A stretch of 64,000 nucleotides of DNA from Desulfobacterales bacterium (GCA_963674755.2 CAXXVS010000003.1:1-64000); one strand, 5' to 3'; shown: positions 47,513-55,371, counted from the first letter of the stretch. Notes: generated by a model not told the origin, from the letters alone. Numbers and translations: made by a program.

Positions 47513-48103
47513 ATGCCGTCACACAGCATGCAGTTGCTTGATACTTTGCTGAAAACGATATCGAAGTTGTCTGAGACGCGGCTGAACTATTGGGCAGAGT
47601 TCGCTGTCGATATCCCGTTTGGTGCTATGCTAATCTTTGCAGGTCTGCGGGGTGGTGAACTCGGCCCCATCGCAATTGTTCTAACCATCCTGCTTGGCCT
47701 TGTTTTCTTCAGCATCATCGAATACGCATTTCACCGCTGGCTGTTTCACGGATCAGTGCCGATCGTGGCACAGGGTCACCGCGCGCATCACCAGAATCCG
47801 TTGGGCTACGATTCGTTACCCTTCTTCTTGCCGGCCGTGATGCTGCTGGCGCTCACAGGCGTGCTTGCATTGCTTCTACCCGCTAAGTACGCTTTTCTGC
47901 TGACGGGAACAATTACACTAAGTTACGTTATTTATGGACTGAGTCATTTCACCATCCACCACCATCATTTTCATTATGTCCTTGCTCGAAACTGGGCCGC
48001 CAATCATCACATCCATCACTACCACGCCGATACCAACTTCGGCGTTACAACCCCGCTGTGGGATATAGTGTTTGGCACACGCTATCGGAGAGCATCTCCG
48101 TAA
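47513..48103 (+). CDS. Sterol desaturase / fatty acid hydroxylase family protein
   Basis: His boxes HRWLFH, HRAHH, HFTIHH, HHIHH; NFGVTTPLWD. Confidence 0.88.
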   Translation: MPSHSMQLLDTLLKTISKLSETRLNYWAEFAVDIPFGAMLIFAGLRGGELGPIAIVLTILLGLVFFSIIEYAFHRWLFHGSVPIVAQGHRAHHQNPLGYDSLPFFLPAVMLLALTGVLALLLPAKYAFLLTGTITLSYVIYGLSHFTIHHHHFHYVLARNWAANHHIHHYHADTNFGVTTPLWDIVFGTRYRRASP

Positions 48104-48691: not shown

Positions 48692-48867
48692 CAGAGGCGA
48701 TTTTAAAAAGTTCTCAAACAATTTTCTGCTTATTTATGACAACTTACCACTTCAAGCGACAGATTATTGCAAAGGATTAATCTACCTGCGAGAGGATTTA
48801 ACCTCGGTATTCAGCGGAGAGCGAGCGCCATGCGCCCGCTGCGACCAGTCGTCACAAAGTGCCGCCT

Positions 48868-49620
48868 CTATTCCCCCTCCTCGATGGACGTACTGCCCAG
48901 CACAACCCTCCTTTCCATGGCATTGATATTCGTCTGCAGTTCCAGGATCGCCAGGGGGTTTTCATCGGCCAAATAGGCGATGATGGTCCGGTGCAGGATG
49001 GGCGTGCCGTCCGGGATCTGGAGATAACGGGCCGCATAATGGTCGCAGAACCAGGGGCGGGTAATCTGCCGGATCTCCTTTAATTCAACATCCGCTGCGA
49101 CGGTCAGAAGCGGCGCCCGGCGCAGTTTGGAGGACGACACCTGCCGATAGCGCCAGAGGGGAACGAATAGATTTGCCAGGTCCTTGCGCCGCTCGTCTTC
49201 GCTGGAGATCAGCAGAAAATGGGATAGATAGATCCGGCCGTTCTTCAAAATCTCTTGCCGGGTGTCAAAATGGGCCATCACGCGGTTGGGCGGGTCGATG
49301 AATCCGTTCAATAGCATGCGAATTTTCCCGCGCATCAGGCGTTCTCGGATTTCCGTCATGGAAGGGGAAGGGACCCACAGCGCTTTCTGGGGACTTTCCC
49401 GCACGACCGTCCCCGTACGGGGCTTTTTCAAGACCAGCGCTTCCATCTCCAGGAGTTCGAGGGCCTTGCGGATCATGCCATGGCTGATGCCGGTCTGCTC
49501 CGCCAGTTCGTTCAGGGTCGGGATGGGGGATCCCGGGGGACGGTCGCCGGAAATGATCTCCTGCTTCAACTGAAGGTAGAACTGAAAATAAAGGGGGATA
49601 TTGCCTTTTTTAAATGCCAC
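48868..49620 (-). CDS. GntR-family regulator
   Basis: IPLYFQ...IPTLNELAEQTGISHGMIRKAL winged HTH; divergent UTRA-like C-terminus. Confidence 0.88.
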   Translation of the reverse strand: MAFKKGNIPLYFQFYLQLKQEIISGDRPPGSPIPTLNELAEQTGISHGMIRKALELLEMEALVLKKPRTGTVVRESPQKALWVPSPSMTEIRERLMRGKIRMLLNGFIDPPNRVMAHFDTRQEILKNGRIYLSHFLLISSEDERRKDLANLFVPLWRYRQVSSSKLRRAPLLTVAADVELKEIRQITRPWFCDHYAARYLQIPDGTPILHRTIIAYLADENPLAILELQTNINAMERRVVLGSTSIEEGE

Positions 49621-49696
49621 GGGAGCTTTTTTGTCCTCGCTGTCATTTTTGGAATTGACAAATTCGCCAAATTTTTACAATTAATGAGGATTAATG

Positions 49697-49718
49697 TGAT
49701 AATTTTATATCAAAATTA
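49697..49718. promoter_or_regulatory. Putative GntR operator
   Basis: Overlapping IRs TGATA-N6-TATCA (49697-49712) and TAATTTT-N5-AAAATTA (49700-49718) in the divergent intergenic region. Confidence 0.45.
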
Positions 49719-49732
49719 ATTCAAGAGCGTCA

Positions 49733-50788
49733 ATGAAAACCATGCAGGCCCTAGCGCTGACCCGGATCCCTAACGGGCTCGAACTGGTGGACATGCCGGT
49801 CCCGGAAATCGCCGAAAACGAATTTCTGGTGAAAATGCATGCCTGCTCCCTATGCTATACGGATGTCAAAGCCTGCCAGCACGGCAAACACTTTTACATC
49901 GAGCTTTACGGGCTGCCCTGGGTGCCGGGGCATGAAATGGCCGGTGAGATTGCCGCCGTGGGCCGCCGGGTCAAAGGGTTTTCCGTGGGTCAGCGGGTGG
50001 CCGTGGCCCCTTTCAATCCCTGCGGCACCTGTCCACCCTGCCAACGGCAAAGTTATCGGTTCTGCCACAAGGCACCCGACAGCTTTGTCCAGCCCGGGGG
50101 ATTTGCCGAATATTTCAAGGTTCCGGGAGAGGGTGCGCACCTGCGAACGATTGCCCTGCCCGATGCGGTCAGCTACGAAGAAGCGGCGCTTGCCGAGCCC
50201 GTGGCCTCCTGCCGGCACGCCATCCGCAAGGTCAAGATACCCGACGGGGCCGATGTGGCCGTCATCGGTGCCGGTCCCATGGGGTTGATCCTGATGCAGT
50301 TGGCCAAGGCCGAGGGCGCGGCCAGGGTCTTCATGGTGGATGTCGATGCGCAGCGGCTGGAGCAGGCCCTGGCCTTCGGGGCCGATGAGGTCATCGATGC
50401 CGCCACGGACAACGCCAATCAGGTGCTGCGCCTGAAGACCGGCTTTATGGGAGCGGATGTGGTGATCGAGGCCGTAGGCCGTGCCGAAACCTACCGCCTG
50501 GCGCTTGAAATGGCCCGGGGCGGTGGGGCGGTCAGTTTGTTCGGCGGCATGCCCGGCGGCTCCACGGTGGAAATTCCCTCCGAGCTGCTCCACTACCAGG
50601 AATTGACCATCACCGGCACCTCTTCTTTTTCACCGGAGGACTATCGGGAAGCGATGGCCCTGATCGCGGCCGGCCGCATCGACGTCAAACGGTTGATCAC
50701 GCATCGCTTCGGCAGCCTGGCCGGTGTGCCCGAAGCCGTGGCGCTGAGCCTCGAAAAGCAAGGCTTGAAGAAAGTCGTTCTCCTATGA
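49733..50788 (+). CDS. Zn-dependent polyol dehydrogenase (MDR family)
   Basis: LCYTD, GHEMAG, CGTCPPC...C, EPVAS, GAGPMG. Confidence 0.88.
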   Translation: MKTMQALALTRIPNGLELVDMPVPEIAENEFLVKMHACSLCYTDVKACQHGKHFYIELYGLPWVPGHEMAGEIAAVGRRVKGFSVGQRVAVAPFNPCGTCPPCQRQSYRFCHKAPDSFVQPGGFAEYFKVPGEGAHLRTIALPDAVSYEEAALAEPVASCRHAIRKVKIPDGADVAVIGAGPMGLILMQLAKAEGAARVFMVDVDAQRLEQALAFGADEVIDAATDNANQVLRLKTGFMGADVVIEAVGRAETYRLALEMARGGGAVSLFGGMPGGSTVEIPSELLHYQELTITGTSSFSPEDYREAMALIAAGRIDVKRLITHRFGSLAGVPEAVALSLEKQGLKKVVLL

Positions 50789-50846
50789 ACACGTTGGGTT
50801 TGAGGACTACAGGCCATATAGGAACACCCCCTGAGGAAGGCCATCG

Positions 50847-51677
50847 ATGAACCTGCAAGACCTGACACCCCTGGCGGAAGGACGCGTCTCCCACGTTTTT
50901 GTTACCCGGGACAACAAGGTGCTCAAGCTGCTGCACGCGACCGTTCCGGACTGGAAGGTGGAAGACGAGTTCCGGCGTTGCCGGATTGTCGCCGAGGCCG
51001 GCGTCCCGTCCCCTCGCGCGCTGGAACTGGTGGAAATCGACGGGCGGCGGGGCATCCTCTTCGAATGGGCCGGCAAACGCGACCTGATGAAGGCCAAGCT
51101 GGGGAATCCATTGAACCTGAGGTCCGGCGCCCATTTCATGTCGGATATCCATCGGGATTTTTTAAACCGCGAGGCCCCGGATCTGCCGGATATCAAAGAA
51201 GAGGCCTGGCGCATGGGCCAGACGCTTCCCGAAGGCACCCTCCGGCCGGAACAGTTGGCCGTCCTGCGACGCTATCTGGACCAATTGCCGGATGGCTGCA
51301 ATATCTGCCATATGGATTTCCATCCCGCCAATATCATGCTCAATGATGCGGGCTACCAGGTCATCGACTGGTCCGAAGCCGTCAAAGGAGCGCCGGAGGC
51401 CGATGTTGCCATGACCTCCTTGATGCTTTCCATGGCGGAAACCGCACCGGGCACCAGCCTGCTGCTCAAGGTGATCATCCCCGTCTTTCGAAAGGCCTTC
51501 GAAAAAAGCTACCGCCGGCACCTGACCGCTCAAATGGACATGACCGAGGAAGACCTTCGGAAATGGGCTCTGGTGACGGGTATTTTTCGCATGGCCATGT
51601 GGCAGCTCGAAGGGGAGCGACCGTTTTTAACCGCCATGATTCAGGACCATCTAAACCAATTTGAAAATCACGACTGA
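50847..51677 (+). CDS. APH/choline-kinase-fold phosphotransferase
   Basis: AEGRVSHV, VLKL, CHMDFHPANIM, VIDWSEA. Confidence 0.85.
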   Translation: MNLQDLTPLAEGRVSHVFVTRDNKVLKLLHATVPDWKVEDEFRRCRIVAEAGVPSPRALELVEIDGRRGILFEWAGKRDLMKAKLGNPLNLRSGAHFMSDIHRDFLNREAPDLPDIKEEAWRMGQTLPEGTLRPEQLAVLRRYLDQLPDGCNICHMDFHPANIMLNDAGYQVIDWSEAVKGAPEADVAMTSLMLSMAETAPGTSLLLKVIIPVFRKAFEKSYRRHLTAQMDMTEEDLRKWALVTGIFRMAMWQLEGERPFLTAMIQDHLNQFENHD

Positions 51678-51686
51678 ACGCACCTC

Positions 51687-52535
51687 ATGCTGGTCACCTT
51701 GTCCGACATCCTGGCACCGGCGCAAGCACGCCATTACGCCGTCATCGCCCCCGATTTTCTGACTACCGGCATGCTTGGCCATTATCTTGCCGCAGCCGAA
51801 AAATATCGGTGCCCCCTTATTGCCAGCTACCCGCCCCTGCCCATGGACCGGTTCCGACCCTTCGACCGATGGGTGGGCAAAGTGTGCGCCCTGTGCGATG
51901 CCGCACCGGTTCCGGTATGTCTGCACCTGGATCACGGCCGGGATGTGCCGACCTGCCTCAAGGCCATCCGGGCCGGTTTTACCAGTGTGATGATCGATGC
52001 CAGCGCCCATGATTTTCCTTTGAACCTGAATATGACCCGCCAGGTGGTGAAAGCGGCCCGCAAGGCCGGTGTCAGCGTGGAGGCCGAAATCGGCCATGTG
52101 GGGGGCCATGACGACACGCGGGACGGCAGAGCACGAGCCGATGACCTGACCGATCCGGACCAGGCGGCGGCCTTTGCCGCCCAATCGGGCGTGGATGCCC
52201 TGGCCGTTGCCATCGGTACCCTGCACGGGACCTATCGGGGAACGCCCCGCATCGACTTTGAACGCCTGTCCGCCATCCGGAAAGGCGTGGATGTTCCCCT
52301 GGTGCTCCATGGCGGATCGGGAACCGGAGCAGAGAATATCCGCCGTTGCATAGCCGGGGGCATTTGCAAGCTCAACGTGTTCACCGATCTCATCAAACCC
52401 TATTGGAAAGCCTCCGCATTAGGCTTCAATCCATTGTCAAAGGGCGGACCCGGCGATCATCGCCGCCGGATCGTGGACGACATTCTCAGCCTGTATTTTG
52501 AACTTTCGGGCAGTCTTGGCGTTGCGGCAGCCTGA
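51687..52535 (+). CDS. Class II fructose/tagatose-bisphosphate aldolase family
   Basis: LHLDHG, VMIDAS, EAEIGHVGG, GTLHG, LVLHGGSG. Confidence 0.9.
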   Translation: MLVTLSDILAPAQARHYAVIAPDFLTTGMLGHYLAAAEKYRCPLIASYPPLPMDRFRPFDRWVGKVCALCDAAPVPVCLHLDHGRDVPTCLKAIRAGFTSVMIDASAHDFPLNLNMTRQVVKAARKAGVSVEAEIGHVGGHDDTRDGRARADDLTDPDQAAAFAAQSGVDALAVAIGTLHGTYRGTPRIDFERLSAIRKGVDVPLVLHGGSGTGAENIRRCIAGGICKLNVFTDLIKPYWKASALGFNPLSKGGPGDHRRRIVDDILSLYFELSGSLGVAAA

Positions 52536-52566
52536 TGCCACGCCAAAAATCAAAAAGGAAATAACC

Positions 52567-53217
52567 ATGCTATTGGAAAAAGAGCGCACCCAGGTCGTTC
52601 AATACTGCCACAAGCTGGATGCCGGCGGACTGACCACCGGTACCGGCGGGAATATCAGCATCTTCAACGCCGAGGCCGGCCTGATGGCTATCAGCCCCAG
52701 CTCCATGGACTATGCGGTGATGGAACCCGAGGATGTGGTGGTCCAGGACCTCGATGCGCACATTGTGGACGGCATCCGGCGGCCCTCATCGGAATTCGGC
52801 ATGCACCTGATCTGCTACCAGAACCGGCCGGACATCGGCGCGGTGGTGCACACCCACTCCCCCAAGGCCACCACCCTGGCGGTGCTGGGCTGGGACCTTC
52901 CGGCCATTCATTACATGATCGCCGTCAGCGGTGGTGCCACCATTCCCTGCACGCCCTACTGCCTGTTCGGCACACCGGAACTGGCGGAAACCGCAATTAA
53001 GTATCTCGAAGGCCGCTACGCCTGCCTCCTGGGCAACCACGGCGCCCTGGCGACCGGTCCCAACATCGGCCACGCCTTCGCCCTGGCCGAACACATGGAA
53101 TTTTGCGCCGACCTCTACCTGCGGGCCAAAACGCTCGCTGAACCGAATGTCCTGAGCAATGAACAGATTGCCGACGTGATCGGAAAATTCATTGATTACA
53201 AGACCCAGGAAAAATAA
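52567..53217 (+). CDS. FucA-like class II aldolase
   Basis: GGNIS, PSSE, VHTHS, LLGNHG; RBS aagga. Confidence 0.9.
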   Translation: MLLEKERTQVVQYCHKLDAGGLTTGTGGNISIFNAEAGLMAISPSSMDYAVMEPEDVVVQDLDAHIVDGIRRPSSEFGMHLICYQNRPDIGAVVHTHSPKATTLAVLGWDLPAIHYMIAVSGGATIPCTPYCLFGTPELAETAIKYLEGRYACLLGNHGALATGPNIGHAFALAEHMEFCADLYLRAKTLAEPNVLSNEQIADVIGKFIDYKTQEK

Positions 53218-53248
53218 TGCCTTCCCCCTTATTCCGGGAAACCCGCCC

Positions 53249-54835
53249 ATGCCATTGAACAGGGACGCCATTTTCAAGAAGATCAAGACCGACACCTGGG
53301 ACCTGATCGTTATCGGCGGCGGCATTACCGGCGCCGGTATCCTGCGGGAAGCGGTCCGCCGCAAGGTCAAGACCCTGCTGGTGGAACAGCGCGATTTCGC
53401 CTGGGGCACCTCCAGCCGCTCCGGCCAGTTGGTGCATGGCGGCCTGCGCTATTTAAAGCAGGGGGATGTGAAGCTGACCTATCAGTCGGTGCGGGAACGC
53501 GAAATGCTGCTCAAAGAGCTTCCCGGGCTGGTAAACCCCTTCGGCATGATGATGGCCGTCTACAAAGGCAACCGGGGTCAGCGCCTGATCGCGCAGGCCG
53601 GTTTGCTGGTGTACGACATAATGAGCCGCCATTTCAGAAAGCACACCTATTCCGCCAAGCAAATGGCCGCGCGTTTTCCGGGCATCCGCCGACAAGGCCT
53701 GGAAGGGGGGCTTTTATTCTACGAATCCGTCACCGACGATGTCCGGCTCGTGCTGCGGGTGTTGCAGCAGGCGCAGGAAGAGGGCGGCCTGGCGGTGAAC
53801 TATTGCAAGGCGACCGGATTGCGGCAGGCAAACCATCGGGTGCGCGGCGTGACCCTGGAAGACGGGGTCACGGGGGAGAAGATCGATGTGCCCGCCAAAC
53901 AGGTGATCAATGCCACCGGGGCCTGGGTCGACACCCTGCGCGGGGAGGTGCGCAAAAAAAGTACTCGACACCTGCGGCCGCTGCGGGGGAGCCACCTGGT
54001 GTTTTCCGCCGAGCGGCTGCCCGTAAGCCAGAGCATCGTCATCACCCATCCCACCAGCGGCCGGCCCGGATTCATCTTCCCCTGGGAAGGCCGGGTCATT
54101 ACCGGCAATACGGATATCGATCATACCGGCCGCCTGGACGTGGAAGCCTCCGCCACGGCCGACGAGGTGGAATATCTTCTGGAAAACGTCCGGCACCACT
54201 TTCCGGATCGAAAGATTACCCGCCGGGATATCATAGCGTCCTTCTCCGGGGTCCGCCCGGTGGTGGGTTCGGGCAAGAAGGATCCCTCCAGGGAATCCCG
54301 GGACCATGTGGTCTGGCATGAAGACGGGCTGCTGTCCGTAACCGGCGGCAAATTGACCACCTTCCGGCTGATCGCCCTGGATGCCCTCAGAGCCGCCCAG
54401 CCCATGCTGGGGGCATTACCGGACCTCGATAAAAAACAGCGGATCTTTTCTCCGTTGGAACCTTGGCCCCCTGATGCCGGAAAGCTCGATGCGAAGACCC
54501 GGGGCCGGCTCCAAGGCCGCTACGGGAATCGGGCCGAATTGCTGATGGCTGCCGCCGAACCGGGCGAACTGGAAACCATTCCCGGGACGCGGACCCTGTG
54601 GGCGGAGCTGCGCTGGGCGGCGCAGCAAGAAGCCGTGGTGCACCTGGAAGACCTCATGCTGCGGCGAACCCGCATCGCTCTGCTGCTGGAAAACGGCGGC
54701 CGGGCAGTGCTGCCCCGCATAAGAACCATCTGCCAGCCGCTGCTCGGCTGGAGCGATGACCGCTGGCGCCGGGAGGAACAGTCTTACATGGAAACGTGGC
54801 AGCGGTTTTATGGGGTGCCGAATCGTCCTGGATAA
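53249..54835 (+). CDS. FAD-dependent glycerol-3-phosphate dehydrogenase (GlpD/GlpA-like)
   Basis: IGGGITGAG, GTSSRS, HGGLRYL, NATGAW, GVRP, GGKLTTFR. Confidence 0.9.
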   Translation: MPLNRDAIFKKIKTDTWDLIVIGGGITGAGILREAVRRKVKTLLVEQRDFAWGTSSRSGQLVHGGLRYLKQGDVKLTYQSVREREMLLKELPGLVNPFGMMMAVYKGNRGQRLIAQAGLLVYDIMSRHFRKHTYSAKQMAARFPGIRRQGLEGGLLFYESVTDDVRLVLRVLQQAQEEGGLAVNYCKATGLRQANHRVRGVTLEDGVTGEKIDVPAKQVINATGAWVDTLRGEVRKKSTRHLRPLRGSHLVFSAERLPVSQSIVITHPTSGRPGFIFPWEGRVITGNTDIDHTGRLDVEASATADEVEYLLENVRHHFPDRKITRRDIIASFSGVRPVVGSGKKDPSRESRDHVVWHEDGLLSVTGGKLTTFRLIALDALRAAQPMLGALPDLDKKQRIFSPLEPWPPDAGKLDAKTRGRLQGRYGNRAELLMAAAEPGELETIPGTRTLWAELRWAAQQEAVVHLEDLMLRRTRIALLLENGGRAVLPRIRTICQPLLGWSDDRWRREEQSYMETWQRFYGVPNRPG

Positions 54836-54930
54836 GGTTGATGAGCGTCGGATAGCCTGTCATATTAAGGGACCTTGGCCCGGGGGAAATCGGCCTGTCG
54901 GGCACCTTCGTTGTCATCAGGGATAAGACC

Positions 54931-55371
54931 ATGTTGAAAAAGATCGATCATGTCAATGTCGTCGTAAGCGATCTGGCGCGTGCCAGGGATTTCTTCTGCA
55001 AACTGGGGTTTATCGTGATCCATACCGGCGATCTGGAGGGCGAATGGATTTCGGCCGTCGTCGGCCTGGCCGACGTGCGGGCCTCCTATGTCCAGCTGGC
55101 CCTGGGCCAAACCGATTGCCGGCTGGAACTCCTCGCCTTCGAGAGCCCGCCCTCACCCCCCGCCCCCCTTGAAAACCGACCCCATCACCTCGGCATCCGG
55201 CATCTGGCCTTCGCGGTGGACGACATCGAAGCGCTGGTGGCCGACTTAAAGGACGACGGCATCGCCCTTTTCAGCGAGGTGGGAACTTACCCGGCCACCG
55301 GCAAGAAGCTAGTCTATTTCTATGGACCGGAAGGAATCATTCTGGAGTTTGCCCAGTACCAAGCGGAGTGA
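54931..55371 (+). CDS. VOC/glyoxalase family protein
   Basis: IDHVNVVVSDL, RHLAFAVDDI, GPEGIILEF. Confidence 0.88.
   Translation: MLKKIDHVNVVVSDLARARDFFCKLGFIVIHTGDLEGEWISAVVGLADVRASYVQLALGQTDCRLELLAFESPPSPPAPLENRPHHLGIRHLAFAVDDIEALVADLKDDGIALFSEVGTYPATGKKLVYFYGPEGIILEFAQYQAE

Follow-up and report, generated by a model that had tools for sequence, protein, structure and literature searches.

A possible kinase-first route from alditols to dihydroxyacetone phosphate encoded by a GntR-associated gene cluster of a Desulfobacterales bacterium

What do the products of seven neighbouring genes of a Desulfobacterales bacterium act on, and in which order? The genes lie at positions 48868..55371 of a stretch of 64,000 nucleotides (GCA_963674755.2, CAXXVS010000003.1:1-64000; this whole stretch is called the window), which comes from a genome of 6.7 Mb (G000 in the following); coordinates are those of the window unless another locus is named. 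They code for a GntR-family regulator, a Zn-dependent dehydrogenase, a kinase of the APH fold, two class II aldolases (one of the FBA type, one of the FucA/DrdA type), a GlpD-like flavoprotein and a VOC-fold protein (Table 1). A first-pass annotation had placed the dehydrogenase before the kinase and had regarded GlpD as a side link between dihydroxyacetone phosphate (DHAP) and glycerol-3-phosphate (G3P). The order favoured here, with a probability judged slightly better than even, is that of a GntR-controlled module which begins with the kinase and leads from an alditol via an alditol-1-phosphate and a 2-ketose-1-phosphate to DHAP and an aldehyde.

In such a module the APH-fold kinase would phosphorylate the primary hydroxyl group at C1 of an alditol, and the GlpD-like flavoprotein would oxidise C2 of the alditol-1-phosphate to a 2-ketose-1-phosphate, with transfer of electrons to a quinone-type acceptor. 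A class II aldolase would then cleave between C3 and C4, releasing DHAP and a non-phosphorylated aldehyde; the FBA-type enzyme would serve 3S and the FucA/DrdA-type enzyme 3R substrates. For the Zn dehydrogenase an accessory role is envisaged, either the reduction of free aldoses or ketoses to the alditol or the handling of the aldehyde. We infer the reactions, their order, the class of substrate and the regulation from the genes, their co-conservation, their active-site residues and their folds.

The order of the first two steps is suggested by the neighbourhoods of related kinase genes. Eighteen loci with a kinase at least 55% identical to that of the window were compared; three (L005, L006, L008; at least 94% identical) were left out as non-independent. 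The kinases of the remaining 15 loci were 55–77% identical, and the contigs of L007, L015, L019 and L029 end too early for GlpD. GlpD was present in 11 of the 11 loci whose contigs extend far enough, and it follows the kinase immediately in seven of the 15; the FBA-type aldolase was found in six, an orthologue of the Zn dehydrogenase in five, FucA and GntR each in three (L017, L048, L088), and the VOC gene in none. Thus, kinase and GlpD appear to form the conserved unit and the Zn dehydrogenase to be optional, and the order dehydrogenase to kinase with GlpD at the side is probably wrong. The expectation that a neighbourhood search anchored on the kinase would reveal a conserved module was borne out: GntR, dehydrogenase, kinase, FBA-type aldolase, FucA and GlpD occur in the window's order in L017, L048 and L088, at 61–81% identity.

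In 13 further pairs of kinase and GlpD homologues from protein searches, the longest source contigs of both partners were of equal size (several < 7 kb), which suggests, indirectly, that the two genes are adjacent. Pairwise distances of kinases and of GlpDs were correlated with r 0.81 over 18 pairs, eight of them seen in loci and ten paired by longest-contig size, a value reached by none of 5000 permutations; it shows co-inheritance, not function, since kin share their history. None of 25 loci of distant APH relatives (25–34% identity), many of them on short contigs, had a gene of the cluster within 4.5 kb. This wider stand-alone APH group (L020-L044) is common in many bacteria and has no conserved neighbours.

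The GlpD-like protein scored below the curated cut-offs of all GlpD, GlpO and GlpA families (score/cut-off: PRK12266 272/360, PRK13369 249/352, GlpO 280/840). It keeps H50, R54, R254, R317, R332 and K354 (E. coli numbering), which we take to be the phosphate-binding and base residues of GlpD, and since they are kept, the enzyme very probably continues to act on a phosphate ester. Four substitutions, S46G, K47Q, V256G and T270N/D, were present in nine of nine kinase-linked copies and suggest that the substrate of this group has changed; V256G would widen the pocket. Fourteen rows of the group linked to FGGY kinases or oxidases had K47 and T270 throughout, G256 in no case and S46G in three. Among 13 loci of GlpD relatives at 37–51% identity, an FGGY kinase was present in eight, a FAD_binding_4/FAD-oxidase_C protein in nine, and either or both in 11; an APH match was found among the scanned neighbours of none. 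A tree from a quick search without bootstrap, the careful search being unfinished, placed all nine kinase-linked GlpDs in one clade of 46 rows (SH-aLRT 99), which also holds proteins of unseen context and is nested in a group of 59 rows with FGGY/oxidase-linked GlpDs (SH-aLRT 99). Because the wider relatives of this GlpD adjoin FGGY kinases, the APH protein seems to have replaced an FGGY kinase upstream of the GlpD-like dehydrogenase. Ordinary glycerol genes are present as well: G000 encodes a GlpK scoring above the cut-off as well as a GlpABC-like set and an FGGY/oxidase/GlpD trio of its own, and it has three GlpD/GlpA homologues besides that of the cluster; G021, another genome with the cluster, carries both an FGGY-linked and an APH-linked GlpD. 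A second plain route for glycerol would thus be redundant, and it seems less likely.

The kinase (276 aa) matched PF01636 with 64 bits (cut-off 23). K27, E41, D157, N162 and D174, presumably the APH catalytic set (Lys and Glu of the ATP site, the HxDxxxxN and D metal motifs), were invariant in 37 aligned rows. With a structure model (pLDDT 92), the best match in a fold search was APH(3') at Z 18.1 (4h05; rmsd 3.8, 229 aligned residues); LicA was found at Z 17.4, and MtnK at Z 14.4 and 14.3, ranks 25 and 27. The protein is thus predicted to be an active-looking small-molecule kinase whose specificity is not assignable from the fold. A sequence search of the PDB returned only weak matches to hygromycin kinases, and the nearest Atlas clusters bear only APH-family protein names. 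An identity as MtnK or DrdK was rejected: MtnK has about 400 aa, its rank in the fold search was low, and TIGR01767 matched neither this protein nor any in five genomes including G000, although the control matched in 2 of 14 genomes. Since, in addition, none of the seven open reading frames (ORFs) of the cluster matches the isomerase MtnA/DrdI (MtnA of G000 lies on another contig, G000:C2:2440701), the analogy with MtnK, which had been drawn at first, is weak. A hydrophobic amphipathic helix of the kinase was considered as a sign of a lipid substrate and rejected as non-diagnostic; stand-alone APH relatives possess the same helix with the same moments.

The FBA-type aldolase keeps D82, H83, E134, H180, G181, H208, S211, N230 and T233, i.e., the Zn ligands, the catalytic Asp and the DHAP-phosphate site. 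Residues for a distal phosphate are different. According to the accessible part of PMC10665668, Ser49, Arg259 and Arg280 of fructose bisphosphate (FBP) aldolases bind the 6-phosphate, and Asp232 of SqiA binds the C5 hydroxyl; the window's enzyme lacks the 6-phosphate site of FBP and tagatose bisphosphate (TBP) aldolases at the tested positions 49, 259 and 280. Its D23 and S47 (in place of Asn and Gln), Y48, P49, F232 and I236 were nearly fixed in the 30 closest homologues, F232 and I236 occurring in 30 of 30 and P49 in all 27 that cover the position. A C-terminal DPR-like motif was found in none of 30 close and 23 mid homologues, and no Arg was conserved. Phe232 is not unique to the subfamily, being present as well in 42 of 142 family members at greater distance. 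Scores were well below TIGR01859 (222/343) and TIGR01858 (189/444) and near the broad TIGR00167 (211/216); a fold search with the model gave rows tied at Z 37–38, without discrimination. From these residues we infer a ketose-1-phosphate aldolase which releases an aldehyde without phosphate and probably without an alpha-hydroxyl group. In G021 and G422, a further genome with the cluster, this protein is the only typical class II member of the FBA family; gluconeogenic aldol condensation there must rely on an enzyme of another class, or the FBA-type aldolase does more than is proposed here.

The FucA/DrdA-type aldolase (PF00596, 180 bits) has 6BTD as its best solved relative (E 2e-67, versus 1e-41 for E. 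coli FucA), and the motifs for the catalytic Glu, the three metal-binding His and the DHAP-phosphate loop align without gaps to 6BTD and 4C24. Its scores were 161/400 for TIGR01086 and 262/264 for PRK06833, two bits short; curated NCBIfam cut-offs were reached by none of the seven proteins. 6BTD is cited in the DrdA paper, by whose accessible text DrdA cleaves 5-deoxyribulose-1-phosphate and accepts several aldehydes (PMC6079011). Products of FucA-type enzymes are 3R and those of the FBA/TBA type 3S, and FucA acts on D-erythrulose-1-phosphate, as far as the available sections of PMC10733421 go; a division of stereoisomers between the two aldolases, as first annotated, is therefore reasonable. 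Ketose-1-phosphate chemistry of both enzymes, also part of that annotation, is supported by the kinship with 6BTD and by the residues of the FBA type, and its hint at deoxy-polyols gains from DrdA being the best solved relative of FucA and from Phe in place of the Asp that binds the C5 hydroxyl.

The cluster FucA is the sole PF00596 match in G000, G004 (a congener with the cluster), G021 and G422; in all four genomes MtnA is encoded elsewhere. In 10 of 11 other congeners a FucA homologue, 45–55% identical, lies at another place; the corresponding site is empty in G000 and G004 (G000:C1:619572-619879, L137; compared with L116:6931-8900), a loss counted as one event since the two genomes are close kin. 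As the only copy left, the operon FucA may also do the housekeeping cleavage of 5-deoxyribulose-1-phosphate in 5'-deoxyadenosine salvage. Next to the emptied site lies the gene of a divergent PF01116 protein (about 447 aa).

Phe at the position that binds the C5 hydroxyl points to a tetritol or a 5-deoxy- or 5-substituted pentitol, i.e., most likely to a substrate without a C5 hydroxyl. The predicted exits presuppose that the flavoprotein has kept the C2 stereopreference of GlpD. With it, erythritol would leave via FucA and L-threitol via the FBA-type aldolase, both with release of formaldehyde, while a 5-deoxy- or 5-substituted pentitol would release acetaldehyde or a substituted acetaldehyde. 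5-Deoxy- or 5-methylthio-ribitol would be cleaved by FucA; if the dehydrogenase worked as a reductase, this could be an isomerase-free entry for free 5-deoxypentoses in genomes which lack MtnK.

Table 1. Features of the cluster and of its divergent promoter region (positions in the window).
Feature	Position	Strand	Remarks
GntR-family regulator with weak UTRA (HutC-type) effector domain	48868..49620	-	divergent from operon; PF00392 E 7e-15
TTGACA-type conserved element	49656..49682		divergent promoter region; promoter role putative
Candidate GntR operator, imperfect palindrome TGATA-N6-TATCA, 20 bp	49695..49714		travels with GntR
Zn-dependent medium-chain dehydrogenase, sorbitol/threonine dehydrogenase type; accessory	49733..50788	+	ADH_N and ADH_zinc_N
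APH/choline-kinase-fold small-molecule kinase; core; proposed alditol 1-kinase	50847..51677	+	PF01636
Class II FBA/TBA-family aldolase, distinct subfamily; proposed (3S)-ketose-1-phosphate aldolase	51687..52535	+	residues; no distal phosphate site
Class II aldolase, FucA/DrdA type; proposed to cleave (3R)-ketose-1-phosphates, perhaps also the DHAP-shunt aldolase of this genome	52567..53217	+	PF00596; relative of 6BTD
FAD-dependent GlpD-family dehydrogenase; core; proposed alditol-1-phosphate 2-dehydrogenase	53249..54835	+	DAO and DAO_C
VOC/glyoxalase-fold protein, lineage-specific add-on	54931..55371	+	PF00903

All seven ORFs were intact at the positions first annotated, and the described layout of five closely spaced, co-oriented genes plus VOC, divergent from GntR, was found again; distances between consecutive genes on the plus strand are 58, 9, 31, 31 and 95 bp. 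Families were assigned by Pfam and NCBIfam profile scans, which, in agreement with the first-pass annotation, gave no match to FGGY, PfkB, ROK, isomerase or transporter families among the seven ORFs. The dehydrogenase has both Zn sites and a NAD-type motif, its best solved relatives being sorbitol dehydrogenase and others (E about 1e-41). The catalytic Cys is followed by an unusual Tyr, and there is an aromatic loop, as in four aligned orthologues; the Arg-Tyr pair of sorbitol dehydrogenase, presumably a functional feature there, is missing. The VOC protein scored 20.6 bits against 120 for glyoxalase I (TIGR00068) and is assigned to the VOC fold only. G004 alone of 13 congeners had a close copy, G008 had a fragment, and no copy was present in G021 or G422. 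It would thus appear to be a lineage-specific add-on, restricted to the window's genus, and the place in the pathway first given to it is not supported.

For the regulator, the UTRA score was 22.1 bits (cut-off 23.8), residues 80–250 lie nearest to UTRA clusters at 0.92, and orthologues in L017, L048 and L088 are 65–71% identical. Palindromes had been noted between the divergent genes. Eleven inverted repeats with arms of at least 5, some of them one repeat counted several times, were found in the 112-bp gap, versus a mean of 3.2 after shuffling, and 4 of 300 shuffles reached 11; with arms of at least 6 the excess was not significant (27 of 300). Thus, the palindromes exceed chance only in part; one site, 49695-49714, is conserved in other loci. 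This is the only site within three mismatches in G000; a half-site lies in the gap between GntR and dehydrogenase in five of five GntR-bearing loci scanned and in none of ten without GntR, and an operator-like site also precedes the cluster in G004, G021 and G422. These findings fit a candidate GntR operator. The sequence TTGAC was invariant in six of six aligned upstream regions, including that of L018, which lacks GntR; a scan with a promoter consensus gave one site nearby, and no excess (five found, 3.1 expected in shuffles). A regulon that would lead to a transporter was sought and dismissed, as the full site is unique in G000 and the one further half-site is found at C3:304075, where an AT-rich promoter serves unrelated genes; extra sites with two mismatches, one each in G021 and G422, differ from each other.

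Several observations weigh against a route that starts with the kinase and ends with an aldolase. L013, L014 and L016 possess kinase and GlpD with neither aldolase nor dehydrogenase nearby (10 kb on each side of L013 and L014; 1.2 kb upstream and 9 kb downstream of L016), and a ketose-1-phosphate of four or more carbons would need an aldolase. The relatives of this GlpD are linked to glycerolipid genes and not to sugar alcohols, and no transporter is conserved in any of the compared kinase loci. FucA may be in the cluster for its housekeeping reaction. The kinase fold is uninformative on the substrate, since 4374 chains had Z of at least 2 and the aminoglycoside and choline kinases at the top were tied, at 10–20% identity. 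In the DNA run X10, a contig about 87% alike leads from the end of FucA straight to the start of VOC, with no GlpD in between (53217-54931 in the window); the relative from which it came has another gene order or no GlpD at this junction. Because of the three aldolase-free loci, some weight is given to a reading, considered unlikely, by which the core pair acts on glycerol or on a glycerol ether or monoacylglycerol, the APH protein standing in for GlpK or PA3024 and the GlpD-like protein forming DHAP or alkyl/acyl-DHAP, with aldolases and dehydrogenase as later additions that widen the range. This would agree with GlpD relatives in FGGY/FAD-oxidase clusters similar to PA3024-PA3026, which are proposed for glycerolipid metabolism, with acyl-CoA ligases or dehydrogenases near L009, L013, L014 and L015, and with the larger pocket expected from V256G. 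It is opposed by GlpK above its cut-off in five of five genomes tested and by the two GlpD types of G021, by the occurrence of the FBA-type aldolase in 6 of the 15 kinase loci, and by the absence from the kinase loci of an adjacent FAD oxidase resembling alkyl-DHAP synthase; the helix of the kinase provides no pointer to lipids.

The original order, which resembles that of E. coli ydj (polyol to 2-ketose, phosphorylation to ketose-1-phosphate by the APH kinase, aldolase cleavage, with GlpD only connecting G3P and DHAP), is rated somewhat lower still. In its favour, the dehydrogenase resembles sorbitol dehydrogenase and its gene immediately precedes that of the kinase in the window and in five other loci; in L012 the kinase is preceded by a Zn dehydrogenase that is unrelated (30%) and by an aldo-keto reductase; and ydj is an earlier example of a cluster that unites dehydrogenases, a kinase and a class II ketose-1-phosphate aldolase. 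However, the orthologue is missing in 10 of 15 loci and GlpD never where it could be seen; nothing in the cluster would make G3P; G000 has three other GlpD/GlpA homologues; the kinase-linked GlpD has active-site changes of its own, and the dehydrogenase is without the Arg-Tyr pair. A mosaic without a single pathway, in which FucA is simply the DHAP-shunt aldolase at a new place, acting together with an MtnA from another part of the genome, and the remaining genes have separate tasks, seems improbable. The unique PF00596 copy beside a distant MtnA in four cluster genomes, the emptied site of the congeners' FucA and the genus-limited VOC speak for it, but the order from GntR to GlpD is kept, with a shared operator-like site, in L017, L048 and L088, whose FucA copies are 70–75% alike to that of the window, compared with 44–49% for those of the congeners; moreover, loss of the old copy would also be expected if a broad-specificity operon enzyme had made it redundant. 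Equally improbable is the idea that the module strips DHAP from a polyol tail on a large non-polar or aromatic group, such as the side chain of bacteriohopanetetrol or the ribityl tail of a cofactor. Hints in this direction are the aromatic or non-polar Y48, P49 and F232 in place of polar residues at the acceptor end of the aldolase, V256G in GlpD, the aromatic loop of the dehydrogenase, the lack of a conserved sugar transporter and the sediment hosts. If the hopanoid were phosphorylated at C35 and oxidised at C34, aldol cleavage would yield DHAP and the C32 hopanal; the side chain of bacteriohopanetetrol is derived from ribose, its D-ribo geometry fits GlpD and DrdA, and C32 hopanoids are common in sediments. 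A flavin- or F420-type tail would be shortened to a formylmethyl and then a hydroxyethyl product. The L-ribulo geometry of a ribityl tail suits the FBA-type enzyme, but the C2 preference of GlpD would have to be inverted.

If the kinase-first route is correct, its closest parallel among known systems would be the erythritol catabolism of alphaproteobacteria, which has its exit via the isomerases EryC/H/I. The available part of PMC5992420 describes phosphorylation by EryA and oxidation next to the phosphate by the GlpD-like EryB. The likeness would lie in the order of reactions, kinase first and then GlpD-like oxidation of the carbon adjoining the phosphate. EryA is glycerol-kinase-like and belongs to the FGGY family; neither an FGGY-type EryA nor isomerases EryC/H/I were found among the ORFs of the cluster, which has an APH-fold kinase and an aldolase exit instead. 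PA3024-PA3026 of P. aeruginosa comprise an FGGY kinase, a GlpD homologue and a FAD oxidase, proposed for glycerolipid metabolism in the accessible portion of PMC8151288; one or both of these neighbours occur beside relatives of the window's GlpD in 11 of 13 loci, a link by neighbourhood. The window has no FGGY kinase or FAD oxidase, its GlpD has four clade-specific substitutions, and the function of the Pseudomonas cluster is itself putative. With the 5-deoxyribose DHAP shunt (DrdK/MtnK, DrdI/MtnA, DrdA) the cluster shares a FucA nearest to 6BTD, the kinase superfamily and the products DHAP and aldehyde; it differs by a kinase other than MtnK, no isomerase, and an extra GlpD, FBA-type aldolase and Zn dehydrogenase. 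The ydj genes (YdjG, YdjH, YdjI, YdjJ, YdjL) also encode Zn dehydrogenases, a kinase and a class II ketose-1-phosphate aldolase of the FBA family, with 38% identity of the window's FBA-type aldolase to YdjI and 30–31% of its dehydrogenase to YdjJ/YdjL. But YdjH belongs to PfkB, ydj has transporters and lacks GlpD, and YdjI, with His232, takes long carboxylated sugars.

SqiA and the FBP/TBP aldolases have the same fold (Z 37–38, rmsd 2.0–2.5, about 270 aligned residues) and the metal and DHAP-phosphate residues, whereas the window's aldolase has Phe for Asp232 and no 6-phosphate residues; a sulfoglycolysis context (SQ isomerase, PfkB kinase) was not found in the cluster. A fin neighbourhood of Clostridium scindens, a candidate for anaerobic riboflavin breakdown with loss of the ribityl tail in the available text of a preprint (bioRxiv 10.64898/2026.02.13.705874), likewise combines kinase, aldolase and alcohol dehydrogenase in an anaerobe. 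This is an analogy only, by comparison of descriptions, and fin differs by a RibF-type kinase, a class I aldolase and an aldehyde dehydrogenase, no APH kinase or GlpD being named in that text. A cluster on a Rhizobium plasmid (L145:3903-9036; sugar ABC transporter, aldo-keto reductase, GlpD-like protein, class I aldolase, FGGY kinase), apparently uncharacterised, may follow the same logic of kinase, GlpD and aldolase with other families. On plasmids of Sinorhizobium and Agrobacterium (L146:3880-8069, L147:3833-8174) a Zn dehydrogenase and a GlpD-like protein occur with two hypothetical genes, adjoining a sugar ABC transporter and a lipoyl dehydrogenase complex. The view that the combination is not a described pathway still holds, insofar as literature searches of partial coverage found no published description of it.

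The chemistry of the single steps is known; what appears to be new is the APH-fold kinase in the slot of an FGGY kinase, the aldolase subfamily and the combination. Judged by its sequences, the cluster would work most like EryA/EryB joined to a DHAP aldolase, yet it fails tested features of the DHAP shunt, Ery, PA3024-26, FBP/TBP aldolases and SqiA. If the route is correct, a large uncharacterised APH-like group would obtain its first function, as alditol kinases of a protein-kinase-like fold which replace FGGY kinases, a subfamily of class II aldolases acting on short or deoxy ketose-1-phosphates would be defined, and a sugar-alcohol route would be present in sediment anaerobes not usually seen as polyol users. 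Synthetic formaldehyde assimilation wants a dedicated L-erythrulose-1-phosphate aldolase, according to the part of PMC10733421 that was available, and the FBA-type enzyme could be a cheap candidate. Since the cluster is rare, with the kinase profile matching 3 of 401 genomes of the phylum, it probably counts for little ecologically, except if a hopanoid or a cofactor tail is the substrate. The hopanoid version, if true, would provide an enzymatic, anoxic source of sedimentary C32 hopanoids; that routes for ribityl tails are being sought is evident from the available text of the riboflavin preprint, by analogy only.

The profile of the FBA-type aldolase matched 4 of 401 genomes of the order, and the kinase is carried by 2 of 13 genomes of the window's genus. 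Of 67 kinase homologues, 62 form a tight group at 53–96% identity, followed by a drop to 38% or less; named sources of this group include Dehalococcoidia and Desulfatibacillum. Near-identical pieces of the cluster were present in DNA contigs from rhizosphere, marsh and marine sediment runs (X5, X7, X10), a search of genome contigs with a single protein gave one locus, and a scan of viral sequences gave three distant aldolases. The block 48832-55359 is common to G000 and G004 at 95% identity and was not found in four other congeners tested, although its flanking genes are present there. Recent transfer was considered, identities between G000 and G004 being 95% in the cluster, 80–89% in the flanks, 86% in the glpK region and 92–95% in the mtnA region.

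Some observations on the kinase loci may be added. A molybdopterin oxidoreductase is encoded directly upstream of kinase and GlpD, on the same strand, at L010:2-928 and L011:3-575, and the kinase homologue at L029:1417-1988 shifts frame near base 1572, due to a pseudogene or an assembly error. Glycyl radical enzymes and their activases adjoin three loci (L048:4478-7763, L088:13847-17132, L013:2888-6344); as pathway partners they were rejected and taken as incidental, since those of L048 and L013 are only 30% alike, and G000 has its orthologue of the former 150 kb away. The two flanking ORFs scanned in the window code for a fatty-acid hydroxylase-family protein and an SLT transglycosylase; the hydroxylase-family gene (47513-48103), in a putative anaerobe, converges on gntR and lies outside the block shared with G004. 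The RNA run X22 contained a few short, near-identical contigs (word share 0.07), one of which spans the junction of kinase and FBA-type aldolase and one lies outside the genes.

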